Source: an uncultured Clostridium sp.
GTDB taxonomy: Bacteria; Bacillota; Clostridia; TANB77; CAG-508
Direction of reading: 5' to 3'
Assembly: GCA_964618105.1 (NCBI GenBank)
Contig: CAZUAJ010000002.1
Location: forward strand, 1-59,501
DNA: 59,501 nucleotides
The position numbers and the translations under genes were made by a program. The notes below the pieces were generated by a model, which was not told the origin of the DNA, did not search any database, and was given only the letters and a program-made list of their open reading frames with translations. Positions 3,242-46,747 of the stretch are shown piece by piece (positions within the stretch are counted from its first letter, which is position 1; each line of letters starts with the position of its first letter).

Positions 3242-6200
3242 TTATTTTTTAAGAACCTTTTTCTTAATTATAATTATTCCTACTGATAATAATGCAAATA
3301 CTGCAACTCCTACACCTAAGTATAAGTAAGTTTGACCAAATGGTGGTAAAATAATTATTTTTTCTGCTTTTGCAGAATCAACTTCTGCTGGTGCTTCATT
3401 TGGTTTTTGGTTACCTACTATAGAGTATGCCATTCTTCTACCTACTGTATTAGAATATTGAACAATTTCTGCAATGTTATCATAAGTCATATCATCTGAA
3501 GTGTTTTGTGATGTAATAGTTTGTGTTAATACTAATTTTTCACTTGTTGACTCTTTTGGTGATAATTTTTTATTTAATTTTTCTGTTTGTATAATTGTAG
3601 TATTATTTATTGCATTTTTTACATCATCACTTACATTTAAACTGTCTTTTGATGCAATTTGCCAATTTGAATTGTCTACTTCTCTGTATTGTAAATTGTT
3701 GCTTACATAATCTACTATTATATCTCCTGAAGTTTTTACTATATCTCCTGATTTTACACCTTTATAGTAGAATTCTTTTCCTGTGTAGTCTGTTTCACCC
3801 ACATTTTGTAATGTAAATTTGTATTCTATTTTAATTGTTGCTCCATGCATTAATTCTGAGTCTACAATAGCTTGAATTAATCCGTTTTTTCCGCCTGTAT
3901 ATAGTGAACCTACTAAACTATTTACATCATTTTGACTTGCATTATATTTGTATGCACTATTATATGATTTATAATATTTTGAGTTATTTATTAAGCTATA
4001 GTTTTTGCCTTTTGTCCATGATAAGTCTGGTACTGCTTCTTTTGCATCATATAATATAGTTCCATTAGCTAGTGTAATTTTTACATTTTCAACATGTTTA
4101 TTTAATTCTAATTGAGCTTTTGGTCTTTCTGTTAGTCCTAAATCAACATCTTTAATGTGATAATTATTTTCTTCTGTATTTGTAATTATTCTATTATATT
4201 CAACTTCTATTGAAATTACTCCAGTTTCCGCCTTCATTTGAGTATTCTTATTTACACTTGTTGAATTTGCTAATGTTTGAGCTAATTGATTTGTAACTCC
4301 ATGGTAATTATTACTGCTATATTTGTTTACGTCTTCTCTATAACTCCAAATATCTTTTGCATCAGATACTAATTTTTCATTTGATTTTTTAATGCTATAT
4401 CCATAGCTTCCTGATGTATTTTGATTTTCAGTATCTGTGTAACCAGAATATACTTTTTTACCTAATTCTTGTGCTGCACTAATTATTTTTTCAGATGCAT
4501 CTTCAAAATTTGTTCTACCGTTTTGGTCTATACCTTTTTGATATATTGTTGATTTGTAATCTTGACCATTGTATTTTGCATTATATTCTCCACCATAAGT
4601 GAATCTTATAACATAGTCCCCTGGTATATAATCTTCAAATAAATAAGTACCATCTGAACTTGTTTTTTGTTGGTTAGTATTTCCTAGTGTCGTTGTTTTC
4701 CAAATATATTCTTGCCCATTTGCTAATTTTTCTACTAATTCAACTTTTATGTTTTCTATACCAGCATTTTTTTCATTTCTTATGCCATCACCAATTATTG
4801 ATTCACCAACAACTTCTGTTCTTAAGTCTTCCCATACAGTACCATTTATTTTTCTAGTTTTACTTTCATCATAGAATACTCTTAGTCCTTTTGCTCTATC
4901 TGTATCGTCTTCATATTCTTTTTCGTTTTGTAAATCATTTTTATCAACATTACCTGGTACAGAGTCTATATCTAATAGCCCGGCATAGTCTTTTGAGCCT
5001 TTTACAACTTCATTTGGCAATTCAGTATTATCTTCATAATATGATGTATAGCCATTAATTTCTGCAACATTAAATTTTGCTTCATTTTCATTTTGATCTA
5101 AAATTACTTTTTCATTTTCTTTATTTACTTGGAAAGTTAAATAAATACATTCTTTTTCTCCTGCTGCTAGTTGTTTATCTTTTAGTCCATGAACATAGAT
5201 TACACCATTTTTTTCGTCGCTGTCCACATTTTTAGCATTTGAAATATATTTTAAATCTTCTTTATCCATTGTTTTAAAGTATTCATCATTGCTAAATGAA
5301 TTGTTGTCATAAGTTACCCATGATAAGTCTTTTCTGTATTTATAGTCACTATCAAAGTAGTCTGCTACTTCATCAATTGTATTTAAAATACCTCTTGATT
5401 GATTTCTAAGTGTAATTTTGTATGTTATAAATACTTCTAACGCTTTTCCACCATGTCCTTGTTCTCCATTATATTGTGCATTTGGATCATAATTCCAGTC
5501 TGTTTTAAATACTTCTCTATTATAGCTTCCATTATAATAACTTACATCAGATAGTCTTACACTTATGTCCCAATTATTTTCGTCATTATCATTTGCTCTA
5601 TTGTATGTATATATTTCGGTCTTTCCATTTATTTTTGTGACAGCTCTAAATACGTCTTTCTTTAAGGCTATGTCATTAATTTTTCTTCTTACTAGACCTA
5701 AATCAATATAAAATTGACCCGGATAAAGTGGTTTATATACTTTTGATCCAACTACAACATCTGACATATTTGAAAATTGCGCATTTCTAGCTTCCGAACC
5801 TGTTGAAAAACTTTCTTTTGAGTTTATAACAAATTCATCATAATATGGATATAAATCAAATCCGCCAACATTTTCAACCTTTCTTGATTTTGTATATGCT
5901 AAAATTTTACAATTGTTTATAAATTTTTCTTGATCTTTGTCTGGTTTTTTTGTTGCACTATTTAATTCATTTGTTTCTACTATTATTCCATTTTCTATTG
6001 CAAAGAAACTATCAATTACACCGTCTTGTACTAATTGTTGCATTGAATATACTTTTCCACCCTTATAATTATTGGGGTAAGCATTGATTTTTGAGAATTT
6101 TTCATTTAATTCTTCTCTTTCGGAATCTTTTTCAGTAGCTTTTGATGTAGTTAGCCATTGACTTGAATTATATTCTGGTCGACTATATGTTGTTGGTACA

Positions 6201-7802
6201 TATAATTGTCCATTATATTCAAATGTTACATAATATTTTTCTTGAGAATCAAGGTCATTAAATATGTAACAACCTGTTTCATCTGTTAAAGTTTCATTTA
6301 CTTTTTTATTTGATGAATTATATATTTCAACTTTAATATTTGGTAATGCAACATCATTTTTATCTCCACTTACGCCATTATATGGTGTGTTTTGCTTATC
6401 ATTCAAGCCTCCATCTACCCATACATATCCTGCTAAATCCATTGTAAGTTTTTGCTCTAATTCTAGTTCAAGCTCTTGTTCATAAAGTTGTCTACCTGCT
6501 GTTGCTGACATTAGCCATTGTTGTTGGAATTCATCCAAATAACATGTTGTTTTACAGCTATAATGATCATAATCATAACATGAAGATGTACAGTTACCTT
6601 CTTCGTCATCATTATGTATTGGGTGATAGTGATCTTGTTTCTCTGCATGAGCATAAGATACAATATATTTAACTCCACGTAATTTCGAATAATTTCCTTC
6701 TGCAACCATATATTGGAACTTTACTTTTATTTTTATTTTGCTAACAAAATTTTTATCGCTAGGATTTATCCCAGCATTTGGATTTTCAAATATTATTTCA
6801 AAATCTTGATCTGGTTCTGGATATACTTGCTCTGTTTCATCAACGAGCATATTGTCTGCTTCAAAAAATTCTGGTTCTTTTTCTTCTGTTCCTATAACAA
6901 ATTTTTGTATATCAATTCTTTCTTTTACTATATCTCCGCTTTTATTGTAACCAATTACATATATATCTGATATTCCACCAAAAGCAATGTTTCCATAAAT
7001 TCCTGTTGTATAGCTTAAATTTAATGGACCAACTGCATAAGTTTGAGAAGCTGAGTCAACTTTTGTATATACATCATCTATATTTGTATTATCTTCTGGA
7101 GCTAATCCTTCTTTACCCGCTTCTTCATTTTTTAATATTTCATCATAATATGTTGCATAATCTATTGCTTCTTTGTCATATATTGATGGTCCATCATGTC
7201 GTGAACCCCAGCCTTGTATAATTAGTCCCCAGTCAATTGTTTTACCATTTACTTCTACTTTATTTGTATTCCATAAAGCTTTTTGTTTTTCTTCACTCCA
7301 TTGACCATTTGGTTCTTCTGAAACTATGTATGAAACTGCTGGTGATAAATCCCCGCCACCATAATCTTTATATACTGGTGGTGTTTTATATCCTTCTCCA
7401 ACTGTTGAAGCACAGCCACAGCTAGATTCATAAGGTTTTTTTCCGCCGCCTGGTGTATGTGCTTCATATTCTAAAGCACTATAATTTCCGTTATACCTTT
7501 GGCTATATCTAATGTCATATCCGCCATCTTAAAGGAGAACCTGGGTTTATACAATATATTTCAAATCCACCATAGGTTGGAAGTTCAAAAGAATTCATAT
7601 TTTCTGGTAATGCTTCCCATAAACCTGTTTCAACACTTTTTAGCGGATAAGAAAGTTCTTCTACAACAGAACTTGATGATACTGTTCCTTTTCCATTTTT
7701 TACTTCTGCTTGTACATCATTATTAATAAAATAGAATAAACCCAAGAATATTGCAATTGTCATTATGTTTGTAAAAACTATTTTTATAATCTTACCCTTC
7801 AT
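3242..7802 (-). pseudogene. Giant cell-surface adhesin interrupted by a 1-nt frame disruption near 7515-7531. Has signal peptide, candidate thioester (TQXA-like) domain, SdrD-B/Cna-B-like domains and a C-terminal membrane anchor
   Basis: The 95-aa ORF 7515..7802 has a signal peptide (IMTIAIFLGLFYFINNDVQA) and ends ...FEIYCINPGSPLRWRI*. The next frame is open without any stop from 7528 to 3242 (I translated 6850-7528 by hand: DGGYDIRYSQRYNGNY...EEKQKALWNT...) and is continuous with the 1202-aa ORF. Total length 4561 nt = 3n+1. Repeats such as GTYLFEDYIPGDYVIRFTYGG are SdrD-B/Cna-B-like. The C-terminus is ILPPFGQ + hydrophobic stretch + KKKVLKK. Confidence 0.7.
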
Positions 7803-7819: not shown

Positions 7820-10800
7820 TTAATTTTTATTTAAAACTCTTTTTTTAATTTCAAATATACCAAATCCAATTATTGCCACAACTGCTAACATAAGCACAAC
7901 ATAAAATGTTATTTGAGCTCCTGTTACAATACCTATTACAATATCTGCTTTTGACATATCGTCTTCATCTTCTTGTTTATTTGCTATTGTTGAGTCTATG
8001 TCTTTTAGACCTTGTTCATTATAGCTTTCATATATTTCTGCATTATTGTTTAGTATTCCAATACTGTCTTCTGTTATTTGTTTTAATAAAATTAATGTAA
8101 CTTCTTTAGATTCACCTGGATTAATAACTGTATTTTCTAAACTTGTATTATATACATTTCCGTCTTTTGCTAAATACCAATCTTTGTTTAATTCTGTGTT
8201 AAATACAACTCCTTTTGGTAAATAGTCAGCTATTTTTTTTGCATATCCTGCAACTCCGCCTTGATTTGTAACAACAATTTTATATTCAATAACAATACTG
8301 CTTTTTCCAAGGTTTTGTTTTAATACTTCTATTTTAGTATTTTTTACATCATTGTATTCGAATGTTTCTGTTCCTGATGTTGGAGTTGTTCTTGTTATTT
8401 TAGTAATATATTTGTCTAATTTTAAGTCAAATTTTTCTGCCACATATACACCAATGTCTATATCTCTTATATTGCTATTTGTTATTTTTATTGAATCAGA
8501 TATACCTACTATTGTTTTTACACCATTTACAGTCATATTTATATCAATTACATCTGAATTAAGTGTTTCGTCTACACCTTTTTTCTTATATTCTGTAAGG
8601 TTGTAAATTCCATTTCCATAATCAAATATTACAAAGTACTCATTTGGTAGTAAATTATCAAACTGATATTTTCCTTGACTATCTGTTGTTGTTATTTTTT
8701 CTGCATCTGTTTGAGTATCTTTTACAATTTTACTTGTTTTCTTATATGCAAGCATTACTTTAATGTTTGATAGTAGTTCTTCTTCTTCATCTCTCATGCC
8801 GTTTTTATTACTGTCAATCCATGCTGTACCTGTTATTTTATATGTACTTGTTGTTGGATTGCTTGGATTACTTGGAGTGGTTGGCAATTTGTGTGCTTCT
8901 TCATTATATTCTATTATATTAGTTACAGAATTTGTTGCTGTTTCATTCAATCCATTTGCACTAATTAAAACATTATTAATTATTTGTTTATCATTTTTAT
9001 CTGGTAATAAATTTGCTTTTGCTATTATTTTTATTTCTTTACTTTCACCAACTTCTAAACTTGTGATTGTAATTTCCACTTTTCCATTATTAAGTTTATT
9101 TGTTTTTTGTTCTTTTCCTGCATATTCATATATTGCTTCTTCAAATGTTAAACCTTCTGGCAAGCTATCTTTTATTTTTATATTATTAATGGTAGATTTA
9201 CCACTGTTTGTTATTTTAAAGCTATAAGTAACATTTTCTGTTTCTTTTATATATTTAGGTGTTGATGTTAACTCTGATATTTTTAAGTCTATAATTTCTA
9301 ATGCATATTCAGAAATATTAGAATAATGTTCTTCAGTTCCTTCTGCTTTAGCTTTTGCCATTAAAGAAATGTTTCCTTCAAATTTTTCTATTCCAATATT
9401 AAGCATAATTACTTTTTTAATATCTATAGTATCTATTTTTATTGTTAATACATTAGATGTTTTATCATAAGTTATACCTTCAGTAGTGCCATTTTCTGAT
9501 GACCAACTTTCTTTAATAATTGCATCTTTATATGTAGTTCCTTTTGGTAAAGGTATTGTTATTACTGTGTTGATTAGTTTACCACTTCTTGAAATGTTTT
9601 TTACATTTATAGTGTATTCTATACTTTCACCGTTTTTTAGTACAATATCTTCTGCTATATTACTAGACATATTAATTTCGATTTTACCTTCTTGTAAATT
9701 AATAGTACATTCATTAGAAGGAATTTCTCCTTCTAGTCCATTAGAAGATACATATATTTTGTTGCTAACTACTTTTGGGAATCTTGTTTTTTCATTTAGT
9801 TCTTCTTTTGTTATGTCTTCAGCTGTTGAAAGTGCTGAACTTTTATTCATTTTTAAATAATAACAAATTTCCTTACTTTCACCAACTTTTATTGTACCTA
9901 TATTGATAGTTTTTGTTGTATCATCAATTTCAAAAAATCCATTTCCTGTAACATAGTCTATAAATTTAGTATATTCTGGCAATGGAATTCTAACTTTGGC
10001 ATTTGTTGCATCTAAGTTCCCAGTGTTTTTTATAGTTGCTTTCATTTTTACAATTTGGCCTTCTCTTACAGTTTCTGCTGTTGATTTTAATTCTATTGAT
10101 AATTCTGGGCCTGACCCTGTTGTTAATTTTACTATAGGTGCGGTTTTTGATTCAAATATTTCACCAAGTGTTGAAATATTTGTATAATATACTTTATACA
10201 CTTCATTTACTGTATTGTTATATGTAATACCTTCTGGTATTTCAATTTGATATATTATTTCTAATGTTTCTCCATTTTTCATTTCATAGTCATTTAATAC
10301 TATCATGTATGATTGTACATTTGCTGTTTTTTCAGTATTCCAGTTATTGCTTTCATTCAATTCTTTTGTTGCTTCTGCATTTTCTGAATAATAAACTGTG
10401 TATTTTGAAGTGTCTATTCCTTTTAATGTTACATTTCCTACTAATTTTGTACTAAATGTTGAACCTAGTTCTTTTTCTGTGTCTATTTCCTTATTGCCTT
10501 TTACTGGTATTCTACCTAATATTACAATGTCTTTAATATTATTGTTATAATTATTTATTACTTTTCCAGTAATTGTTGCCGTTCTTTTTTCTGTATAAGT
10601 TTTTATTGTTCCTGTTATTCCTTCATTTGATATTGACAATAATTCTTTTTCACCTTTTGCATAATTTGAAACACCATTTGCAGTAATTATTCCTTGTGGT
10701 GCTACAAAGTTTAATTTTGTTTCAACTGTTCCTTTTGCGTTTGTAGCAACATCATTTGAATTTACATATTCCATTGTTATTTTGTTTTCATTGTTTGGTG

Positions 10801-12787
10801 TTAATTCTCTTGCTTTTATGTTTGTGTTAAATATAATTATTGTTCCTTTATATTCAGCATCTATTGTATATTCTGTTTGTTTTCCTTCTAGTTCTACATT
10901 AATTACTATTTGTCCATTTTCTTTTACTAATTGTAAATCTTTTATTTTTAATCCATTTGACATTAAAATATCATAGCTATTTATTTTGAATTTTGAAATA
11001 TGTTCAGGAAATTTTATTTTTAATTTTGTATTTGAGTATAAAGCATTGTTCACACTTGATGTGTCTAGTACTGCTCTTATTTCTACATTTTCATTTTCTA
11101 CAGCTGTTGTTAAGTCTTGTTTGTTTACTTCAACACTTATAATTGTTTTTGGCTCTGCTAATGATATTTCAGTTGTTTCATTGTTTAGTTGTAAAGCTAA
11201 TTTAGTAAATGTTTTTAATTGTTGTTTTGAATAATTGATATCTTCTTTTATTGCTTTTTGTACATTAATAGTTAATTGTCCTTCTGTAACAGGTTTACTT
11301 GTTAATATTGTTAATTTATTGTTGTTTAATGAATTAATGTCTAATACATAATTATTATTTTCTACAGTTGATGTTTTATTTATAGTTCCGATTTTAGTTT
11401 TTTGCATATCATATATTTCAATTTTTCCTTCTTCTCCAAGGATTTTTTCAAATACATTTTTTGCTATAGTTATTGTTTTATTGTATGCATAGTTGTTATT
11501 TGATATTGTTGTTGAATTTTTTTCTCCATCTTTTGTTACAAATTGGTCAACTTTTTGTTCAAATTTTATTTCTTCTGTTAGTTGTGGTGCACTTACTATT
11601 GCATTATAACTTACATTGTATGTTGTTTCCTTTTTGCTTTTTGCATCATAGTTTGCATACATTTGTCCTTTTGCTATACTTGTTTCTGAACTAACACTAT
11701 AGTCTACTAATTCTCCTACTGTTTTATTTGCTTTTATTTCAGTATTAGTCTCTTCTATTTTTATGGTTTTGTCTTGATTACTATATACTTTTATGTTTCC
11801 ACTTATTTTTAAGTTTGTATCAATTCCGTGTTCAACAGAGAAGTCATGGATTTGCTTATTTTCATATACAAATGTAACTAAGTATTCGTCACTTACATTT
11901 TTAAGCCAAGCTATTTTATTGCTTAAGTTTTTAACATTAATTGTTAAGTTTCCTGTTTCTGCATTGTATGAATAGTTTTCGCTATTAAAGTTTAATCCAT
12001 TTTTTTCACCGTTTGTTGCTTCAGTTTTATTTGCAACTACTGTAACCAATGTTGGTTTATTATTATTAATTTCTGGAACTTGAATATTAAGTTCTGTTTC
12101 TTTTGTTGGTACAACGTTATCTTTTATTCCAGAATTTATTTTTGCTTGTAAAATAACTCCTTGTTTTTCTTCAGTAGCATAAGTAATGTATTTTGTTAAT
12201 TCTGCTTTTACTTCTGGTTTAATTTCATTGTCTGTTGTTACATCCCAAGAAAGCTTGTTTATAATTTCTTTTGAAACATTTTTTTCTTTTGCATTGCTAT
12301 TTATGTATGTTGCTGTAAATACAGTTTTTGTTTCTTTTGAAAAATTATCTACTGCTACTTCATTTGATTTTAAAATATTAATTGGTACCTCTATTTTTAC
12401 ATTAGAGCCACCATTTATTTTATTTAATAAAATTTTGTTGTTTTCTATATCAACATTTTGAATATTTAAATCGCTAATTGATTTATCAATTTCAAAGTTT
12501 GTATTTTGAAAGCTTATTACTCCTTTTTCTAAATAACCTTTTCCACTTACTTTAATGTCTAGATACATTTTGGCAGTTGAGTTCATTTTTTCTGTTTTAG
12601 TATGACTTCCATCTTCAAAATATGCATTAAATTCTACATTTTGTTCTTGTGTTTTAGAGTTTTGATTTAATATTTCATTTTCTGATAATGCATAGGTTAT
12701 TCCATAAACTCCTATAACTGACAAATTTGCGCTCATTAAGCACATTAGTAATAATACAGCTATTAGTTTTTTTAGTAGTTTGTTCAT
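7820..12787 (-). CDS. Giant cell-surface protein with DUF11/CARDB-like repeats, an SdrD-B-like domain and a C-terminal membrane anchor
   Basis: 1655 aa with N-terminal signal peptide (LIAVLLLMCLMSANLSVIG). Repeats include EGQIVKMKATIKNTGNLDATNAKVRIPLPEYTKF and ENVTYSFKITNSGKSTINNIKIKDSLPEGLTF (DUF11-type). Also TGTAWIDSNKNGMRDEEE...GKYQFDNLLPNEYFVIFDY. The C-terminus is GIVTGAQ + hydrophobic stretch + KKRVLNKN. Confidence 0.75.
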   Translation of the reverse strand: MNKLLKKLIAVLLLMCLMSANLSVIGVYGITYALSENEILNQNSKTQEQNVEFNAYFEDGSHTKTEKMNSTAKMYLDIKVSGKGYLEKGVISFQNTNFEIDKSISDLNIQNVDIENNKILLNKINGGSNVKIEVPINILKSNEVAVDNFSKETKTVFTATYINSNAKEKNVSKEIINKLSWDVTTDNEIKPEVKAELTKYITYATEEKQGVILQAKINSGIKDNVVPTKETELNIQVPEINNNKPTLVTVVANKTEATNGEKNGLNFNSENYSYNAETGNLTINVKNLSNKIAWLKNVSDEYLVTFVYENKQIHDFSVEHGIDTNLKISGNIKVYSNQDKTIKIEETNTEIKANKTVGELVDYSVSSETSIAKGQMYANYDAKSKKETTYNVSYNAIVSAPQLTEEIKFEQKVDQFVTKDGEKNSTTISNNNYAYNKTITIAKNVFEKILGEEGKIEIYDMQKTKIGTINKTSTVENNNYVLDINSLNNNKLTILTSKPVTEGQLTINVQKAIKEDINYSKQQLKTFTKLALQLNNETTEISLAEPKTIISVEVNKQDLTTAVENENVEIRAVLDTSSVNNALYSNTKLKIKFPEHISKFKINSYDILMSNGLKIKDLQLVKENGQIVINVELEGKQTEYTIDAEYKGTIIIFNTNIKARELTPNNENKITMEYVNSNDVATNAKGTVETKLNFVAPQGIITANGVSNYAKGEKELLSISNEGITGTIKTYTEKRTATITGKVINNYNNNIKDIVILGRIPVKGNKEIDTEKELGSTFSTKLVGNVTLKGIDTSKYTVYYSENAEATKELNESNNWNTEKTANVQSYMIVLNDYEMKNGETLEIIYQIEIPEGITYNNTVNEVYKVYYTNISTLGEIFESKTAPIVKLTTGSGPELSIELKSTAETVREGQIVKMKATIKNTGNLDATNAKVRIPLPEYTKFIDYVTGNGFFEIDDTTKTINIGTIKVGESKEICYYLKMNKSSALSTAEDITKEELNEKTRFPKVVSNKIYVSSNGLEGEIPSNECTINLQEGKIEINMSSNIAEDIVLKNGESIEYTINVKNISRSGKLINTVITIPLPKGTTYKDAIIKESWSSENGTTEGITYDKTSNVLTIKIDTIDIKKVIMLNIGIEKFEGNISLMAKAKAEGTEEHYSNISEYALEIIDLKISELTSTPKYIKETENVTYSFKITNSGKSTINNIKIKDSLPEGLTFEEAIYEYAGKEQKTNKLNNGKVEITITSLEVGESKEIKIIAKANLLPDKNDKQIINNVLISANGLNETATNSVTNIIEYNEEAHKLPTTPSNPSNPTTSTYKITGTAWIDSNKNGMRDEEEELLSNIKVMLAYKKTSKIVKDTQTDAEKITTTDSQGKYQFDNLLPNEYFVIFDYGNGIYNLTEYKKKGVDETLNSDVIDINMTVNGVKTIVGISDSIKITNSNIRDIDIGVYVAEKFDLKLDKYITKITRTTPTSGTETFEYNDVKNTKIEVLKQNLGKSSIVIEYKIVVTNQGGVAGYAKKIADYLPKGVVFNTELNKDWYLAKDGNVYNTSLENTVINPGESKEVTLILLKQITEDSIGILNNNAEIYESYNEQGLKDIDSTIANKQEDEDDMSKADIVIGIVTGAQITFYVVLMLAVVAIIGFGIFEIKKRVLNKN

Positions 12788-29192: not shown

Positions 29193-30272
29193 TTAATTAT
29201 CTAAAATCGAAAGACCTATTTCTAATATTTCATCTAGTTCTTCCTGTGTATAATTATTTTTACCTAATTCATTTATAATTTCATTTATAAAAATTCCTTT
29301 TAGAGTATTTTCATTTGCCATTTTTTCTAAACTATAATTTAATTTTGTTTTATTTTTAATTTTTATAATATTTTCTTTATTTATAAATCTTAGTATATTA
29401 TTTATATTTATTTCAAATTTTCTTTTTCCCATTAATATTACTTTATATAAATTATTTACATCTAATTGAATATTATTTATTATTTCTATTAATTCTTCTT
29501 CATCATTTATTTCAGTTGTGTCTAATTCTATTTCTTTAAATTCTCTATTATCTGCAAAGATAAATGCTATTTCAGTTTTACCTTTTTCAATATTTCCAAC
29601 AATAAATCCATGTTTTCCAAGTTCATCAAATCCCATGGAAATTGTTGAGCCTGGGTATACTATGTTTTGATTTTCTTCTTCATTATAATCTAATTTATGT
29701 ATATGTCCAAGTGCAACATAATCAAATCCTATTTCTTTTAGTTTGTTTTTATTTATAGGATTATACTGTAACTGCAATTTATCACTTGCATTTATACTTC
29801 CATGTGTAATTAAAATGTTAATTTTATTTTTATCTTCTAATATTATTTTTTCTACATTAGAATTTTCACAATAAAAATCGTCAAAACCAAAGCCATAAAT
29901 ATTTGCTTCATTAGTTTCCACTTTTTCTATTTTAGATGTAAATATCTTTACGTTTTCGTTCCATTCATAATTATTATACATTGAATTTAAAACATAAGGG
30001 TCATGATTTCCTGGTGCAATAAATATTTTAGTTTCTGGTATTTTTTTAAATAATTCATTTATATATTCTATTGTGCTTTTTCTAATATAATTATGTTCAT
30101 ATAAATCTCCTGCTATAAATAAATATTCAATTTCATTTTCCTTAATATAATTTATTATTTTATTAAATACTTGTCTTTGATCTAATCTTCTTATTTTGCC
30201 ATAATTTCCTTTTTGACTTAAATTTGTAAATGGTGTATCAAAGTGCATATCTGCTATATGTAAAAATTTCAT
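29193..30272 (-). CDS. SbcD/YhaO-like metallophosphoesterase (DNA repair exonuclease family)
   Basis: MKFLHIADMHFD, FIAGDLYEH, GNHDP and ALGHIHK calcineurin-like motifs. Immediately upstream of the ATPase gene. Confidence 0.7.
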   Translation of the reverse strand: MKFLHIADMHFDTPFTNLSQKGNYGKIRRLDQRQVFNKIINYIKENEIEYLFIAGDLYEHNYIRKSTIEYINELFKKIPETKIFIAPGNHDPYVLNSMYNNYEWNENVKIFTSKIEKVETNEANIYGFGFDDFYCENSNVEKIILEDKNKINILITHGSINASDKLQLQYNPINKNKLKEIGFDYVALGHIHKLDYNEEENQNIVYPGSTISMGFDELGKHGFIVGNIEKGKTEIAFIFADNREFKEIELDTTEINDEEELIEIINNIQLDVNNLYKVILMGKRKFEININNILRFINKENIIKIKNKTKLNYSLEKMANENTLKGIFINEIINELGKNNYTQEELDEILEIGLSILDN

Positions 30273-30335
30273 GTTTCCTCCAATATAATTATTATTTTGT
30301 TTTTATTTTTTAATTTTTAATTTTTAATTTTATTT

Positions 30336-30500
30336 TTAATTTTAATTCTTAATTTTAATTCTTAATTTTTATTTTAATTTTTAATTTTTAATTTTAATTC
30401 TTAATTTTAATTCTTAATTTTAATTCTTAATTTTAATTCTTAATTTTAATTTTTATTTTAATTTTTATTTTAATTTTTATTTTAATTTTTATTTTAATTT
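30336..30500. repeat. Tandem repeat array of a 13-mer TTAATTTTAATTC and a 12-mer TTATTTTAATTT
   Basis: 13-mer copies at 30336, 30349, 30388, 30401, 30414 and 30427, plus a variant at 30440. 12-mer copies at 30453, 30465, 30477 and 30489. Counted directly. Confidence 0.85.
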
Positions 30501-30954
30501 TTTGTTTTTTAATTTTATTTTATTTTTATTAATTAATTTCTTTTTATCCTTTAAATGTTTTTATCTATTTTTGTTATTTTATATTATATTATTTTTTTAG
30601 TCAATACCTAGTTTTGATTTTGTCATTTTGTTACTTTTTTAATTTTTAATTATTGCTTTTTTAATACTATTATTATTTAGAATTTATTAAAATTTAATTT
30701 TTCCGTTTTTATGTCTACCTTTAAACTATTTTCGACATTTTTATATGTTTTTCTTTCCCCCGTTAGGTTACAGCAGTTTTTTTTAGACCTTTTAGACCAA
30801 TTTTTGATTATATTTTTTTTATTTTTATTTTAAGTAATACTTATTTTTTTAAATTTTCATTGTTTTAATTTTCGTTTTTTGTCTTTTTGGTTTATTACTT
30901 TTAAATTTATATATATTTGTATTGGTTATCAAATTCATCCTATTCACTTTGCTT

Positions 30955-31113
30955 ATTTATTAAATAATTAATTAATTATTTATTTAATTATTTATTTATT
31001 TATTTAATTATTTATTTATTTAATTATTTATTTAATTATTTATTTAATTAATTAATTATTTATTTAATTAATTATTTATTTAATTATTTATTATTTATTA
31101 TTTATTATTTATC
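30955..31113. repeat. Imperfect tandem repeats built from AATTATTTATTT-type 12-mers, ending in four TATTTAT 7-mers
   Basis: Direct reading: ...aattatttatttaattatttatttatttatttaatt... then tatttattatttattatttattatttatc. Confidence 0.8.
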
Positions 31114-31152
31114 AAAAAAAATAAATGATAATTATTTATCATTTATTTTTTT
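31114..31152 (-). terminator. Terminator after the coupling-protein gene
   Basis: aaataaatgataa-ttat-ttatcatttattt hairpin followed by a U-run on the minus strand, 3 nt after the stop at 31155. Confidence 0.5.
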
Positions 31153-31154
31153 AT

Positions 31155-33188
31155 TTATTCTTCATCTATTGGTCCAAATAATTCATCAAATTTTGCTTCT
31201 AATTCTTTTTGAACATCTACAGAAAATACTTCTGTTTCTTCATCATCTTGTGGTAATATTGGAGCATCTTCTTTAATATTTTCTATTGTTGTTTTATTTT
31301 CTGTTTCTAACGGTTTATCAAATTTTTCTTCAACTTGATTATTTCCTTTATTATTTTCTTTTATGTTATCATCTATATCATCTTCAAATAAATCATCTAA
31401 GGATTCTACTTTTAAATCGTTCTTTTTAGTGTTTTCTTCGTCTTCCACATAAGGATTATATGGATTATATTTTCTCCATTTTCCCCTATCTCCAATATTA
31501 AAATCCAAGTGATTTAATGTATATTCTGATAATTTTTTAACCATCTGACTTTCAAAATAATAATATTTTTTAGCTTTAATTGGTTTAATACCTTTTTCAT
31601 AAATAATACAGTCGTCATTGTCCATTCTTCTTAATTCGTCAGGAGTCATTAATGCTCTTGCTAATATTTGATCAGATTCACTAAGTCCTTGTCTATGATA
31701 CTGCTTATCTCTATTTATTGATATACTATCTCTTGTAATTGTTTTTTCGCCTAAAGCTTTTGAAAAATATTCTACTGTTTTATATGAGTTACTTCCTAAA
31801 AATACATGTGTATCACAGTTACCCATAATTGTTTCATAAGATTTTTCATATACAGCTTCTAATTGGTCTAAGTTTTGTAATATAACACTAAATGAAATTC
31901 CCCTACTTCTACTTGTTGATATTTTTTTATCAAAATCTGGTATTTTACCAATATTAGCAAACTCGTCACATATAAAGAATGTTGGAACTTTTAGTCTTCC
32001 ACCATTTGCATCAGCAAAATTATATAACTGTTGTATCATTTGAGAGAAAAATATTGTTAATAAAAAGTCATAAGCTGTATGTGTATCTGAAGATATAACA
32101 TATACTGCTGTTTTTTTACTTCCAATTTGTTCAAAGTCAATTGTATCAGTTGAAGTTACTTCCGCAATTTCTTTTGAATCAAATTTTCCTAGCTTAGATT
32201 GCAATGAACTTAAAATTGAACCATAAGTCTTTTCAGGTGCTATTTCAATTGATTTGTAATACATTCTGGCTGGATGGTCATAAGGTAATTGATTTATGAG
32301 TTCTGTTAATAAATTGCTTCCACCATTTGTATTAGCTGCTCTTACTAATTCTGCACAACTTGCTAAATTTTGTTCTTCTTCTGGTCTAGTAGCCATTAAA
32401 TAATAGATTAACGACTTTAATAGCATTTCTGCCATGTCGTCCCAATATGGGTCTGAACTACTTCCTGCTTCTGATTTTTGCCCTTTTACAATTGTATTTG
32501 CAATAACGTCAACATCTATTTCACTTGAAATATGCATTAAAGGGTTATAACCATCACTATTTGCTGGATTTACTAAGTTTAATACTTTAATTTCATAGCC
32601 ATTTTTTTCTAAAAATCCGGCTGTTTTATCATATAATTCACCTTTTGGATCTGTAAATACGTAAGAACCTAACATTTGGTATGCATTTGGTATTGAATAT
32701 GATGCTGATTTACCAGAACCAGATCCACCCACTACCAATACATTTACGTTTCCTCTTTTATCTACTGGCAAATAATGATTTTGTGCTAATAAAATTCCTT
32801 TGTTTTTACTTAAAATTTGGTATTGTTCTCCACCTTCGCACCAATCACTTGATCCGTGTTCAATGTCTTTATATTCACTTTTAGCTTTTGACCTAAATAA
32901 ACCTATTGTTGAAAAAATTAAATATATAATTGTATAATAAGCTAAAGTTTTTAAAAAAACATTTATATATTTTTCACTAAATATTTCTGTAAAAGTATTG
33001 AAACTTTTTATACTTTTAAAAACATTTTGTATAAATTCACTAAAATCAAAAATTCCATTGTTAGTTGACTCAACAATGGAATATGAAATTGGTGCAACAA
33101 GTATTACAGCTAAAATTAACCATAATACAGCTATTATTATTAAACTTTTTTTGTTATCTTTTAATGTTTTTTTTACTTTTACGTTCAT
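31155..33188 (-). CDS. Type IV secretion coupling protein (VirD4/TraG/TraD family ATPase) with acidic C-terminal tail
   Basis: Two N-terminal TM helices. Walker A is VVGGSGSGKSASYSIPN. Also FTDPKGELY, and FFICDEFANIGKIPDFDKKISTSRSRGISFSVILQNLDQLEAVY (Walker B / TraG-D_C). The last about 100 aa are D/E-rich. The ATG at 33188 has a better RBS (AAAGGTGATAAAAGTT) than the GTG at 33200. Confidence 0.8.
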   Translation of the reverse strand: MNVKVKKTLKDNKKSLIIIAVLWLILAVILVAPISYSIVESTNNGIFDFSEFIQNVFKSIKSFNTFTEIFSEKYINVFLKTLAYYTIIYLIFSTIGLFRSKAKSEYKDIEHGSSDWCEGGEQYQILSKNKGILLAQNHYLPVDKRGNVNVLVVGGSGSGKSASYSIPNAYQMLGSYVFTDPKGELYDKTAGFLEKNGYEIKVLNLVNPANSDGYNPLMHISSEIDVDVIANTIVKGQKSEAGSSSDPYWDDMAEMLLKSLIYYLMATRPEEEQNLASCAELVRAANTNGGSNLLTELINQLPYDHPARMYYKSIEIAPEKTYGSILSSLQSKLGKFDSKEIAEVTSTDTIDFEQIGSKKTAVYVISSDTHTAYDFLLTIFFSQMIQQLYNFADANGGRLKVPTFFICDEFANIGKIPDFDKKISTSRSRGISFSVILQNLDQLEAVYEKSYETIMGNCDTHVFLGSNSYKTVEYFSKALGEKTITRDSISINRDKQYHRQGLSESDQILARALMTPDELRRMDNDDCIIYEKGIKPIKAKKYYYFESQMVKKLSEYTLNHLDFNIGDRGKWRKYNPYNPYVEDEENTKKNDLKVESLDDLFEDDIDDNIKENNKGNNQVEEKFDKPLETENKTTIENIKEDAPILPQDDEETEVFSVDVQKELEAKFDELFGPIDEE

Positions 33189-33213
33189 AACTTTTATCAC
33201 CTTTTCTTTGGTT

Positions 33214-33546
33214 TTATCTATCTACTTCTACTTCTCTTTTTGATTTAGAAATTTTGGCTTGCATTTTGTCTTTTTTATTTTTATGTTCTAATATTTTTTT
33301 AAATGCCTTTTCGCTTTTCATTGAAATAACTGTTCCGTCTGATTTTACAAGTTCATTTTTATCATTTACATAAGATTCTCCAACATAAAGTTCAACATTA
33401 CCTTGTTCTTCAACATAACTTGGTATTATCTCAAACACTTGAGATTTTGGAGGAATTTCTAAAGTTTTTTCTGTTGCTTTAAATGCACTTCCAGCAATGC
33501 TTACTGTGCTTTTTGATTCTTTTGAATGTACAGTTGTACTGCTCAT
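33214..33546 (-). CDS. Hypothetical soluble protein (110 aa) with basic C-terminus
   Basis: GAAGGGAG RBS. 13 nt from the next gene in the coupling-protein operon. No family recognised. Confidence 0.5.
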   Translation of the reverse strand: MSSTTVHSKESKSTVSIAGSAFKATEKTLEIPPKSQVFEIIPSYVEEQGNVELYVGESYVNDKNELVKSDGTVISMKSEKAFKKILEHKNKKDKMQAKISKSKREVEVDR

Positions 33547-33560
33547 ATAAATACTCCCTT

Positions 33561-34085
33561 CTATTTTCCTTCTTTATTCTCTCTAATTTCAAATGCAAAA
33601 TATGACTTATATGGTTTTAATTTGCATTTTCCTTTTACTTCATTTGTTTCTTGATCCAAATATAGAACTGGCTTTACTTCTTCTGTGGTTTCCGGGTCTA
33701 TAATTGATATTGGCCTTTTTAAGTCAGGCGTATATTTAAAGTCTTTATATTCTTGCTCTTGCTCTGAATATAAAGTATCAAACTTAATTGGTATAGGACG
33801 TTTAGCTATTTTTACTTTGTTTTCTTCTAGAATTCCCATATTTATAACTACTTTATCTTGTCCAAAAGATAAAATTACTAATTCTTCATCATTTTCTGGT
33901 TCATCTACAAAAAATGTTTTCTTTTTTAAATTTCCATTTAGCTCTTCAGCATATTCTAAACGCTGTACTGTAAACTTTGGATAATCATTTAACAATTCTT
34001 TTGGTGTTTTGTTTACCCTATAAATTACTGTACTTACTCCTTGAGGATCTGTAATACTAAAGTGTTTACCTTGTATTTTGTCCAT
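33561..34085 (-). CDS. Hypothetical soluble protein (174 aa)
   Basis: AAAGGAGAGAAAAG RBS. First gene of the three-gene unit ending with the coupling protein. No family recognised. Confidence 0.5.
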   Translation of the reverse strand: MDKIQGKHFSITDPQGVSTVIYRVNKTPKELLNDYPKFTVQRLEYAEELNGNLKKKTFFVDEPENDEELVILSFGQDKVVINMGILEENKVKIAKRPIPIKFDTLYSEQEQEYKDFKYTPDLKRPISIIDPETTEEVKPVLYLDQETNEVKGKCKLKPYKSYFAFEIRENKEGK

Positions 34086-34210
34086 CTTTTCTCTCCTTTT
34101 CTATGAATTGCTTGATAATACATAGTTCATCTTTTGTTAAATTCTGTCACTACATTAAATTATAGTACATTTTTAGCTTTATGTCAATATTTCGAGCTTT
34201 AATTTTTATG

Positions 34211-35110
34211 TTAACTATGTATTTCTCTTGGATTATATTTTGATATTTCTTTTAGTTGTTCAAATATTTTCTTTTCTTTTTCTGTAATTTGTTTTGGTAC
34301 CATTATTTGAATATTTACAAACAAATCGCCTCTTCCACCTTTTCCGTCAAGGTAACCTTTTCCTTTTATACAAATATTTTCTCCACTTTCTGTTCCTTGT
34401 GGTATATATATTAACATTTCTTCATCTATTGCCGAAATATTCAATTTAGCTCCCAAAACCGCTTCCCATGAAGTAATGTATAAAGTAGTATATAAGTCAA
34501 CACCATTTAACTTAAACTTTTTATCATTTTGAATGTGAATTTTTATTAATAAATCTCCTGCTTTACCACCATTTTCACCTTGTTTTCCTTGCCCTACCAT
34601 TCTAATTTTTTCTTCATTTCTAATTCCCGCTGGTATTTTAATTTTAAATTCTCTCATTTTTCCGTCTACTGCTCTTAATGCCAATTTCTTCTCTGCTCCA
34701 TAAAAGGCATCTAAAATAGATACTGAAATTTCAGTTTCTATATTTTCGCCATTTTTCATTATTTTTTCATTTTTATTTTTTGTTTTTTCTTTTTGTTCTA
34801 CTTCTCCAAAAAACATTTCAAAAAATCTTGTAAAAATTGGCTTTTTTTCTTTTTGAGCTTGTTCCTTGTTTTTTTGTTTTTTTCCTATACGAGAATTCCA
34901 CATTCTGTCATACTTTCGTTTTGAACTTGAATTTGACAATGTTTTATATGCTTCATTTATATCTTTAAATCTTTCTTCTGCAAAATTACTTGTAGTATTA
35001 ATGTCTGGATGATATTTTTTTGCTTGCTCTCTATATGCTTGTTTTATTTCTTCTATTGTTACATTGCTATTTTTTAGCCCTAATATTTTATAATAATCTT
35101 TGAAAATCAT
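34211..35110 (-). CDS. J-domain co-chaperone, CbpA-like (DnaJ without zinc-finger domain)
   Basis: DYYKILGL...YREQAKKYHPDIN (HPD) J-domain. DnaJ C-terminal beta-domains are present (GENIETEISVSILDAFYG..., GDLLIKIHI..., GDLFVNIQIMVP). There is no CxxCxGxG repeat. Confidence 0.8.
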   Translation of the reverse strand: MIFKDYYKILGLKNSNVTIEEIKQAYREQAKKYHPDINTTSNFAEERFKDINEAYKTLSNSSSKRKYDRMWNSRIGKKQKNKEQAQKEKKPIFTRFFEMFFGEVEQKEKTKNKNEKIMKNGENIETEISVSILDAFYGAEKKLALRAVDGKMREFKIKIPAGIRNEEKIRMVGQGKQGENGGKAGDLLIKIHIQNDKKFKLNGVDLYTTLYITSWEAVLGAKLNISAIDEEMLIYIPQGTESGENICIKGKGYLDGKGGRGDLFVNIQIMVPKQITEKEKKIFEQLKEISKYNPREIHS

Positions 35111-35212
35111 TTAGATTTCCCCCTAGAATGCTTCTTTAATTTTTCCGTCTTTTGTTATGTACATTATTATATCATATCTTTTTTATGTTTTAAATACTTT
35201 ATTTGCAATTAA

Positions 35213-35773
35213 TTATAAAGATTTTAATTTATTTACAGTTAATATACTGTTAAAATGAGGTTCTTCTTTTCTTTCTTTTGTCTTATTTATAGCAAATTCA
35301 ATAATATATACAACACATTTATTTATATTTTCATAAGCTAAATTTCTTACAATTTCCAAATCTTGATAAGACCTTGTTTCTTCTATTTTATCTGCGACAA
35401 AAACAATTTTATCTAATAAATTCATATTAGGGTTACCTGTTGTATGATATTCTACTGCTTTTTGTATTTCTTTAGATAAATTATATTTTTCTTTAGCTAT
35501 ACTTGCACCTATTTTGGCGTGTAATAAACCTAAATTTTTTTGTTCAATTTTATCAATTTTAATATTATATTTTTTAGCATATTCTAATTTTTCTTCGTCT
35601 GTCATTTCTTTTGCTATATCATGTATAAGTCCTGCTATTTTAGCAGTTTCCACATTTACTCTGTAATATTTTGCAAGTTCTTCTGCTGATTTCATTGTTC
35701 CTATTGAATGTAAGTATCTTTTTTCCGATAATATATTTTGTAAGTCTTTTTTTATTTGTTCAATTTCATTCAT
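35213..35773 (-). CDS. yqeK: HD-domain bis(5'-nucleosyl)-tetraphosphatase YqeK-like
   Basis: RYLHSIGTMKSAEELA...AGLIHDIAKE and FVADKIE motifs. About 186 aa, as for YqeK. Confidence 0.7.
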   Translation of the reverse strand: MNEIEQIKKDLQNILSEKRYLHSIGTMKSAEELAKYYRVNVETAKIAGLIHDIAKEMTDEEKLEYAKKYNIKIDKIEQKNLGLLHAKIGASIAKEKYNLSKEIQKAVEYHTTGNPNMNLLDKIVFVADKIEETRSYQDLEIVRNLAYENINKCVVYIIEFAINKTKERKEEPHFNSILTVNKLKSL

Positions 35774-46670: not shown

Positions 46671-46747
46671 TGGTGTGCCTAGCGGGAATTGAACCTGCGA
46701 CCTCTCGCTTAGGAGGCGAGCGCTCTATCCAACTGAGCTATAGACAC
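46671..46747 (-). tRNA. tRNA-Arg (anticodon CCU), CCA encoded
   Basis: Minus strand: GUGUCUA-UAGCUCAGUUGGAUAGAGCG-CUCGC-CUCCUAA-GCGAG-AGGUC-GCAGGUUCAAUUCCCGC-UAGGCAC-ACCA. Seven acceptor pairs were checked by hand. Confidence 0.9.

Follow-up and report, generated by a model that had tools for sequence, protein, structure and literature searches.

Type IV coupling proteins (T4CPs) are commonly seen as components that belong, without exception, to systems for conjugation or effector secretion. Here, we examine a T4CP gene of the VirD4/TraG type that lies in the chromosome of an uncultured Clostridium sp., together with the small gene, p174, that precedes it in this genome and in its relatives. 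The sequence analyzed, hereafter the window, is a stretch of 59.5 kb (59,501 nt; contig CAZUAJ010000002.1 of assembly GCA_964618105.1) with a GC content of about 26%, and all the genes of the locus lie on its minus strand. In the direction of transcription these are a DnaJ-like gene encoding a J-protein of 299 aa (34211-35110); p174 (33561-34085), which encodes a soluble, predicted all-beta protein of 174 aa; p110 (33214-33546), whose small and charged product of 110 aa is fast-evolving and, by prediction, largely disordered; and the T4CP gene of the CD1115 family (31155-33188), which encodes 677 aa from its ATG or 681 aa from an alternative GTG start at 33200. The T4CP gene is followed by a spacer of only 14% GC (30273-31154) that contains two AT-only tandem-repeat arrays. 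The intergenic gaps are 125 nt between the J-protein gene and p174, 14 nt between p174 and p110, and 25 nt between p110 and the T4CP gene (13 nt from the GTG), which are the sizes given in an earlier note on this DNA that had been drawn up from the bare sequence.

That note had recognized the 677-aa protein as a coupling protein from two N-terminal transmembrane (TM) segments, the Walker A and B motifs, a TraG-D_C segment and an acidic tail, and the profile searches bear this identification out. Both relevant Pfam hidden Markov models (HMMs) match above their curated cut-offs: PF02534 (T4SS-DNA_transf; T4SS, type IV secretion system) at 1.2e-82 (278.7 bits; cut-off 20.1) and PF12696 (TraG-D_C) at 1.2e-37 (129 bits). 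TrwB_AAD_bind matches at 1.5e-25, and the NCBIfam model NF045973 ("VirD4-like conjugal transfer protein, CD1115 family") reaches 448.9 bits (cut-off 250); the matches among PDB structures are Cag5 (1.6e-14) and TrwB (3e-4). The nucleotide-binding motifs, Walker A (GGSGSGKS, residue 154) and Walker B (FFICDE, residue 404), are both intact. Residues ~15-35 make up a strong TM helix (Kyte-Doolittle (KD) hydropathy up to 3.2) and residues ~75-97 a weaker second hydrophobic segment, and the protein ends in a tail of 117 aa with 37 D/E against 15 K/R. By its domain content, it is an unambiguous and intact type IV coupling protein. Its homologues number in the thousands, the top 120 being 77-86% identical and located on contigs of up to 0.98 Mb.

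The 125-nt gap behind the J-protein gene contains a perfect sigma-A type promoter, TTGACA-17 nt-TATAAT (34159-34187, minus strand; 12/12 consensus positions). Across 80 related loci this promoter matches the consensus at 12/12 positions in 69 and at 11/12 in the other 11, and among the 25 loci listed it lies 63-105 nt 5' of the p174 ATG. Past the T4CP stop codon, inspection of the sequence by eye reveals an AT-only hairpin with a 9-bp stem (AAATGATAA / TTATCATTT) and a 4-nt loop, followed by a T-run (31114-31144, minus strand), which is a probable intrinsic terminator; an automated terminator scan passed over it because the stem has no G-C pairs. As delimited by these signals, p174, p110, and the T4CP gene are a transcription unit of their own. 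Within the 5' untranslated region (5'UTR) of the operon (34086-34158, minus strand) there is a conserved CTATG-N(~13)-CATAG palindrome, situated directly before the AAAAGGAG ribosome-binding site, which could be a hairpin or an operator; its arms are invariant and thus furnish no evidence of covariation. An Rfam search of 30000-35500 (E-value mode) gave no match, the palindrome included.

The distribution of this unit was analyzed in two independent sets of loci. The first contained one genome per GTDB species and comprised the best 80 of the at least 272 species-level genomes that encode a relative of p174; the second consisted of 80 metagenome loci (L092-L171). Those best 80 genomes are all metagenome-assembled genomes of uncultured Clostridia, among them Candidatus Merdicola and Clostridium sp. 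CAG:389, and two of them are chromosome-level assemblies of 1.57 and 1.70 Mb. In the protein searches, p174 has 3933 homologues, the top 120 of which are 90-95% identical to it, and some of the top ones are from sources named Clostridium sp. CAG:567 and CAG:508. We take CAG:508, CAG:567, CAG:389, and Candidatus Merdicola to belong to the GTDB order TANB77; the NCBI taxonomy places Merdicola in Clostridia incertae sedis only. Wherever the flanking sequence suffices, the order of the locus is kept as MurF-Ddl-(YqeK)-DnaJ-p174-small open reading frame (ORF)-T4CP-variable region-YhaO-YhaN. The T4CP gene follows p174 in 40/40 metagenome loci with enough flank, and the DnaJ-like gene precedes p174 in 50/52 metagenome loci and in all of the genome loci with flank except L069. 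The locus has thus a fixed position in the core chromosome in more than 100 cases, and in at least 80 species-level genomes the p174-T4CP pair occupies one and the same chromosomal site.

Within this syntenic block, sequence conservation is far from uniform. The median identity to the window proteins is 77% for T4CP and 72% for p174, followed by Ddl (63%), YhaO (59%), the J-protein (58%), MurF (55%), YqeK (48%), and YhaN (46%); in 62/62 loci the identity of p174 equals or exceeds that of every neighbor outside the module. Pairwise ratios of nonsynonymous to synonymous substitution (dN/dS) in the T4CP ATPase domain range from 0.007 to 0.057. Judged by these comparisons, the module is under stronger purifying selection than the neighboring cell-wall genes. 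Beyond the lineage of the window, distant p174 homologues (25-39% identity) are found directly upstream of a T4CP gene in three other lineages, each with a different core neighborhood. In the first (L086) the order is FtsH ... p174-T4CP-SpoIID-M23-SpoIIID-MreB, with neither the middle gene nor an adjacent DnaJ; in the second (L087) it is VanW-p174-49 aa-T4CP-RarA, and a DnaJ-like gene is encoded on the opposite strand at a distance of 7 kb; and in the third (L088) an acyl-CoA-ligase-like gene precedes p174, a 121-aa ORF, and T4CP, again with no adjacent DnaJ. Because these three other chromosomal contexts keep p174 directly upstream of T4CP, the conserved core of the locus, as defined by this comparison, is p174 plus T4CP. 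Among the T4CPs linked to p174, identity between members of the four lineages is 41-59%, compared with 34-39% to conjugative T4CPs, which points to a common origin, and p174 is the obligate partner gene of this T4CP clade. The p174-T4CP pair, we conclude, is very probably an anciently domesticated, vertically inherited module maintained by selection.

The third member of the transcription unit behaves quite differently. An ORF of 50-132 aa occupies the p110 position in nearly all the loci of the window's lineage; the homologues are at best 30-51% identical and are usually missed by tblastn. Certain features nonetheless recur: an N-terminal MSSTNVHS-like start, an [LI]E[MI]PP patch and a basic tail, often of the form ..E.E..R, the last residue being R in 36/72 and K in 12/72 sequences. 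A single-sequence AlphaFold2 (AF2) prediction, with a predicted local distance difference test (pLDDT) score of 52, suggests a mostly disordered protein. The basic C-terminus of p110 is reminiscent of VirB/D4 substrates, whose C-terminal signals are positively charged, and could identify p110 as a T4CP client. Whether the three genes are conserved as a unit had been posed as a test; this holds across genomes for the p174-T4CP pair, but p110 evolves fast and its position is empty in lineage L086.

The J-protein could, in principle, enlarge the unit rather than merely adjoin it. It matches Pfam DnaJ at 2.7e-21 and DnaJ_C at 7e-40, carries the HPD motif, and has no match to a zinc-finger domain. 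The description of it as a zinc-finger-less, CbpA-like DnaJ stands as far as its class-B J-protein domains are concerned; it does not demonstrably extend to CbpA itself, since the NF007618 CbpA equivalog model scores 197.9 bits against a cut-off of 403. On one reading, the four genes would form a unit assisted by a chaperone: DnaK, recruited by the J-protein, would load or unfold the clients of the T4CP, and the small proteins would serve as adaptors of its tail. The DnaJ-like gene is adjacent and co-oriented in nearly all flanked loci, 50/52 in the metagenome set, and in L087 a DnaJ/CbpA-like gene lies within 7 kb. However, the 125-nt gap contains a promoter for the operon alone, the synteny of MurF, Ddl, and YhaO is just as strong, no DnaJ is next to the pair in L086 or L088, the J-protein is much less conserved than the pair, and p110 itself is missing from L086. 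We therefore find a four-gene unit highly improbable. As it adjoins the pair only in the lineage of the window, where the housekeeping genes are equally syntenic, and as it is less conserved, the J-protein is probably a syntenic neighbor and not a component of the module; its adjacency is specific to one lineage, and with the operon starting behind it, the J-protein gene has a promoter region of its own and is transcribed separately.

The null hypothesis that had been set against any functional interpretation was that of a decayed integrative and conjugative element (ICE) or plasmid, of which a functionless T4CP gene would be the remnant. The conjugative ancestry of the T4CP, the lack of other conjugation genes nearby and, in most relatives, a T4CP gene that looks "broken" by a 1-nt insertion are all what such a history would leave behind. 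But the dN/dS of 0.007-0.057 is measured downstream of that insertion, the same insertion persists in lineages that are only 44% identical, the synteny is fixed, the promoter is a conserved perfect consensus, and the conservation of the pair exceeds that of MurF and Ddl. Neither relaxed selection, nor a patchy distribution, nor flanking att repeats are observed, and there is no integrase in the window. Purifying selection and fixed core-genome synteny refute the idea of a plain remnant, to which we attach hardly any credence. The AT-repeat spacer, previously interpreted as the boundary of the decayed element, is in fact a variable insertion site between T4CP and YhaO. Its AT arrays (30286-30600, with a period of 13, and 30953-31112, with a period of 4/12/16) are internal tandem repeats, unlike the direct repeats that would flank an element. 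The T4CP-YhaO interval of relatives varies between ~100 bp and ~9 kb; for example, in L001-L003 (12369-21452) it contains a gene for a Flg_new/MBG_2 surface protein of 2765-3027 aa plus a 100-aa ORF, and in L004 (12213-13457) it contains a gene of 414 aa.

If the pair is a selected module, the question becomes how its two proteins could cooperate, and the tail of the T4CP is a suggestive feature in this respect. All the p174-linked T4CPs have in common a motif, QKELEAKFDELFG (consensus [DE][IVL]QK[EQ]LE[AK]KFDELFG), set within an otherwise variable acidic tail and often preceded by an APILPQ patch; in the window it reads DVQKELEAKFDELFG (residues 658-672; 31173-31217, minus strand). Every listed tail from loci of the TANB77 type has it, and it has been kept in lineages L086, L087, and L088 despite an identity of only 41-44% in the ATPase domain. 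Neither of the two conjugative T4CPs examined (L090 and L091) has it, and a 36-aa query containing the motif found no match at E<=10 among the 72,556 plasmids of PLSDB. This architecture has precedents, as both TraD and DotL bind their partners, TraM and the Dot/Icm adaptors respectively, through a conserved short peptide carried on a variable acidic linker. Like the DotL-IcmS/IcmW/LvgA/DotN and F-plasmid TraD-TraM systems, the window module combines an acidic, flexible C-terminal extension that ends in a short conserved peptide with small soluble proteins encoded beside the coupling ATPase. The tail motif is hence a candidate for a tethered partner-binding peptide, and the co-inherited p174 would be its obvious candidate ligand. 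The likeness to the DotL-IcmSW precedent, which the earlier note had invoked, is nevertheless one of architecture. No homology to IcmS/IcmW/LvgA-type adaptors was detected for p174 or p110 in Pfam or NCBIfam, and p174 has no detectable relation to IcmS/IcmW or to PcfB/DUF3801. There is no similarity in sequence or fold to the DotL and TraD adaptors, p174 being predicted as an all-beta tandem sandwich; in contrast to the DotL system, the module has no known T4SS or effector repertoire. The tail-adaptor idea does gain indirect support from the co-occurrence of p174 with a clade-specific motif.

The relationship to conjugative T4CPs of the CD1115 family deserves a closer comparison. These proteins are encoded within a canonical block, MobC-relaxase-PcfB/DUF3801-T4CP-...-PrgI-VirB4, and share with the window T4CP the N-terminal anchor, the T4SS-DNA_transf/TrwB ATPase domain, TraG-D_C, and a score that passes the equivalog cut-off. 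The nearest plasmid T4CPs also belong to this family and are 33-37% identical to the window protein, the plasmid-borne members as a whole being 33-39% identical to it. Yet the window T4CP is encoded in the core chromosome with no relaxase, MobC, PcfB/DUF3801, PrgI, VirB4, or hydrolase beside it, and it is distinguished by its clade-specific C-terminal motif and its vertical inheritance. The gene in front of it is p174 and not PcfB. That p174 might be a diverged PcfB was considered and rejected: HHalign against the PcfB/DUF3801 proteins that precede CD1115 T4CPs gave a probability of <1%, and the two are unrelated by this measure. The lack of conjugation genes reported earlier for the surroundings of the T4CP gene extends to the entire window, where no relaxase, VirB4, VirB6, hydrolase module, or integrase was found among the sizeable ORFs scanned. 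Nor is there a linked relaxase, VirB4-type or any other conjugation gene in the four annotated contexts of relatives (8-10 kb each); the other related loci were checked for syntenic housekeeping genes only. No relative of p174 was found on plasmids or viral contigs, either by tblastn against the 72,556 plasmids of PLSDB or in a scan of IMG/VR.

A T4CP that is orphaned genetically need not be orphaned functionally. It might be the substrate receptor of an apparatus encoded elsewhere, a T4SS or possibly a Tad system, with p174 as substrate adaptor. As far as is known, every characterized VirD4-type T4CP works with a VirB4-type channel, and the window protein passes the conjugative CD1115 equivalog cut-off. 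A Tad pilus cluster, moreover, is conserved in ~95% of TANB77 species, and it is the only cluster of this kind described in the survey of that order (PMC11680825). On the other side of the balance, four independent chromosomal contexts hold p174 and T4CP with no T4SS gene within 8-10 kb, whereas canonical CD1115 T4CPs sit inside the relaxase-PcfB-T4CP-PrgI-VirB4 block; the genomes are only 1.3-1.7 Mb in size; and Tad systems are, to our knowledge, not known to use T4CPs. Weighing these points, we rate a distant apparatus as rather unlikely, though as the main alternative to our model. Since the pair has been kept as well-conserved core genes, the module probably does something other than ordinary conjugation. 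A functional precedent for a role that is independent of any T4SS exists in the FtsK/HerA superfamily pumps, SpoIIIE/FtsK and the Streptomyces TraB, which are likewise membrane-anchored hexameric P-loop translocases of the same superfamily and which work without a T4SS channel. The window protein differs from these in belonging to the VirD4/TrwB-type family and not to the FtsK type, and there is no evidence here for DNA binding by it or for recognition sequences. A sporulation-specific role, one of the possibilities raised previously, was considered and set aside: the textbook sigma-A promoter lends it no support, and the neighborhood only an anecdotal one, in the SpoIID and SpoIIID genes beside the pair in L086.

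The second protein of the pair has no counterpart in the family databases. As had been noted, neither of the small proteins belongs to a recognizable family: p174 has no match in Pfam, NCBIfam, PHROGs, or PADLOC, and for p110 there is no credible one, a PADLOC match at 9e-4 being judged not credible. An AF2 model of p174, built on an alignment of 18 sequences, is all-beta with 14 strands (pLDDT 81, predicted template modeling score (pTM) 0.76), and Foldseek comparisons of the model with PDB and BFVD returned only generic immunoglobulin-like noise with TM scores of ~0.2-0.36, none of the PDB matches exceeding 0.3. An exhaustive representative search placed the homologues in 314 clusters, and these include proteins of 377-1028 aa with an embedded p174 domain. 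Ten such long proteins were scanned (P0282, P0298, P0305, P0320, P0328, P0329, P0334, P0342, P0343, and P0347); all ten contain Sel1 repeats, three a TIR domain, and one a protein kinase domain. On the model, p174 would be a new and autonomous beta-sandwich domain, whose role is most plausibly protein or ligand interaction. As a new protein domain that is common to multi-domain Sel1-repeat proteins, some of them with TIR or kinase domains, p174 has an interest that goes beyond the locus described here.

The same fusions raise the possibility of a conflict or defense module directed against phages, plasmids, and ICEs, with p174 as the sensor, the T4CP-like ATPase as an effector or relaxosome decoy, and p110 as the component engaged in an arms race. 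The rapid evolution of p110, the variable insertion hotspot directly downstream, and a weak PADLOC mad8 match on the T4CP (1.5e-6) would accord with this, as would the Sel1 (10/10), TIR (3), and kinase (1) partners of the domain. However, p174 ranks with the best-conserved proteins of the region, the opposite of what would be expected of a diversifying sensor; the position in the core genome is fixed in all species; no defense-system model in PADLOC-DB convincingly matches p174 or p110; and the hallmarks of a mobile element are lacking. A role in defense is, in our estimation, distinctly improbable.

The 1-nt insertion mentioned above merits separate consideration. In most relatives, the T4CP is encoded by two overlapping ORFs, of ~160 and ~525 aa, and the break is caused by one extra C within the Walker A codons, GT[T/A] GGA [C] GG[A/T] TCN GGN TCN GGT AAA (VVG|GSGSGK). 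It was found in 58/79 species-level genome loci (L010, L013, L015-L020, L022-L032, L034-L045, L047-L053, L057-L060, L063-L066, L068-L071, L073-L081, with L085 and the distant L087 also listed as carrying it) and in 36 of the 59 loci that could be scored in the metagenome set L092-L171, one more being ambiguous; overall, about two thirds of the related species have it. The T4CP of L087 is only 44% identical, and the extra C is present in the HiFi assemblies L034 and L036. Loci without it are L001-L009, L011, L012, L021, L033, L046, L055, L056, L062, L067, L072, L082, and L084. The window gene is of the uninterrupted version, reading GTA GTG GGT GGA TCT with no frameshift site, and its Walker A codons are GGT GGA TCT GGT TCT GGT AAA TCA (32706-32729, minus strand). 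As this gene is uninterrupted, the full-length fused T4CP is presumably the functional product.

How the interrupted genes could yield such a product is indicated by the reading frames around the site. The zero frame runs into GGA CGG at the extra C and meets a stop five codons on, with predicted C-terminal ends of the first ORF such as ...VVGRIRIW. The +1 frame has a TAG immediately upstream and no start codon wherever the Val codon is GTA, and hence a full-length ATPase would require a +1 frameshift; the predicted junction peptide of the species with the insertion is ...NVLVVGGSGSGK... The alternative of a genuinely split gene, with separate 160-aa and 525-aa products, was rejected, since the break falls inside the P-loop and many loci have no start for the second ORF. 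CGG is an extremely rare codon: it occurs in 0/13,918 codons of the long ORFs in the window and in 27/146,809 codons of the insertion-bearing loci. The window has a single tRNA gene, for tRNA-Arg(CCT) (46671-46747, minus strand). A conserved site, a slow zero-frame codon, a +1 frame under selection, and the lack of independent initiation, the features expected of a programmed +1 frameshift, can all be read from the sequences of the relatives, and the extra-C site is thus a candidate for an ancient programmed +1 ribosomal frameshift at a hungry CGG codon. In a neighbor-joining tree the states with and without the extra C are interspersed, which suggests an old recoding site that has been lost repeatedly. 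With regard to the preceding codon, Val is mostly encoded by the rare GTC in loci that lack the extra C (GTC GG[A/T] GG, with a GGAGG-like string in some) and by GTT or GTA in those that have it.

The list of bacterial +1 programmed frameshifts is very short. The relatives' predicted site resembles both prfB (CUU-UGA-C) and the yeast Ty3 (GCG-AGU-U) in combining a conserved shift site with a rare zero-frame A-site codon, here CGG after Gly. It differs from prfB in that no obvious P-site re-pairing is possible (GGA to GAC), which makes it Ty3-like, and in that there is no Shine-Dalgarno-like stimulator at the prfB spacing; unlike either, it lies inside a P-loop. If real, the site would be a rare newcomer to this list, a case of +1 recoding that is deeply conserved and uses a CGG codon close to being unassigned.

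These observations can be assembled into a working model. The T4CP would assemble, as is usual for its kind, into a hexameric ATPase anchored in the membrane; p174, a tandem beta-sandwich protein of the cytoplasm, would be its dedicated adaptor or regulatory subunit, probably docking on the QKELEAKFDELFG peptide and so tethered to the ATPase by the variable acidic linker. Together, the two would constitute a translocase or docking motor for a macromolecule, DNA or protein, without a linked T4SS, and p110, being small, basic-tailed, and fast-evolving, would be a candidate for its client or for a modulator. The +1 frameshift at GGA-CGG may, in most relatives, set how much full-length ATPase is made, such that the frameshifting species would make a membrane-anchor-only product plus a scarcer full-length ATPase; the window gene would have lost the frameshift site. 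Taken as a whole, the package of a p174 adaptor and a T4CP motor with no linked T4SS is put forward tentatively, as a proposal whose prospects fall a little short of balanced, and the independence of the module from any T4SS, considered by itself, is a point on which we lean toward doubt. More ambitiously, a VirD4-type T4CP might have been exapted with p174 into a T4SS-independent, frameshift-dosed machine that does housekeeping work throughout an order of gut Clostridia; the p174 fold would then be a new domain for interaction or sensing, taken up also by Sel1 proteins, some with TIR or kinase domains. This is a possibility that we regard as doubtful in its full extent.

Several considerations weigh against the model of a stand-alone motor with p174 as its adaptor. 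We know of no VirD4-type T4CP for which a stand-alone function has been demonstrated, and a T4SS or Tad pilus encoded elsewhere could be the real partner. That p174 binds the tail motif is something we purely infer. One of the long proteins, P0347 (TIR-p174-Sel1; locus L089, 8001-9494), is encoded by a gene that stands alone, flanked by a MatE gene and a phosphate-transporter operon and without a T4CP near it; the p174 domain is therefore not exclusively a T4CP-binding module. Finally, a search for RNA-seq runs that contain the locus found none, only gut DNA metagenomes.

The ATPase family itself is already known, although linkage to a relaxase and a T4SS, which belongs to the definition of such coupling proteins, is lacking at this locus; what is new, as far as the comparisons reach, is the p174 family, the clade-specific tail motif, and the Walker A +1 site in relatives. 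In the literature on orphan or exapted T4CPs, on secretion in TANB77, and on frameshifting in T4CPs, we found neither the module nor the frameshift described. Fixed in the core of reduced genomes, better conserved than MurF and Ddl, and accompanied by p174, such a T4CP would suggest a cellular role new to this ATPase family, and it opens a way into the biology of a clade of gut bacteria that is abundant but uncultured.

The remainder of the window has the content of an ordinary core chromosome of a sporulating Clostridium. Its housekeeping and sporulation genes include SpoIIE, PBP2, MreBCD, MecA, PcrA, the YhaO/YhaN-like pair, YqeK, Ddl, MurF, and YpeB, and there are in addition RecR, DnaX, SpoIIR, an EPSP_synthase-family protein, a cell-wall hydrolase (Hydrolase_2, SleB-like), and a peptide chain release factor with PCRF and RF-1 domains. 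Beside SpoIIE lie the genes of two giant putative surface proteins of 1202 aa (3242-6850, minus strand) and 1655 aa (7820-12787, minus strand), whose domains are SdrD_B, CarboxypepD_reg, and CLIPPER.

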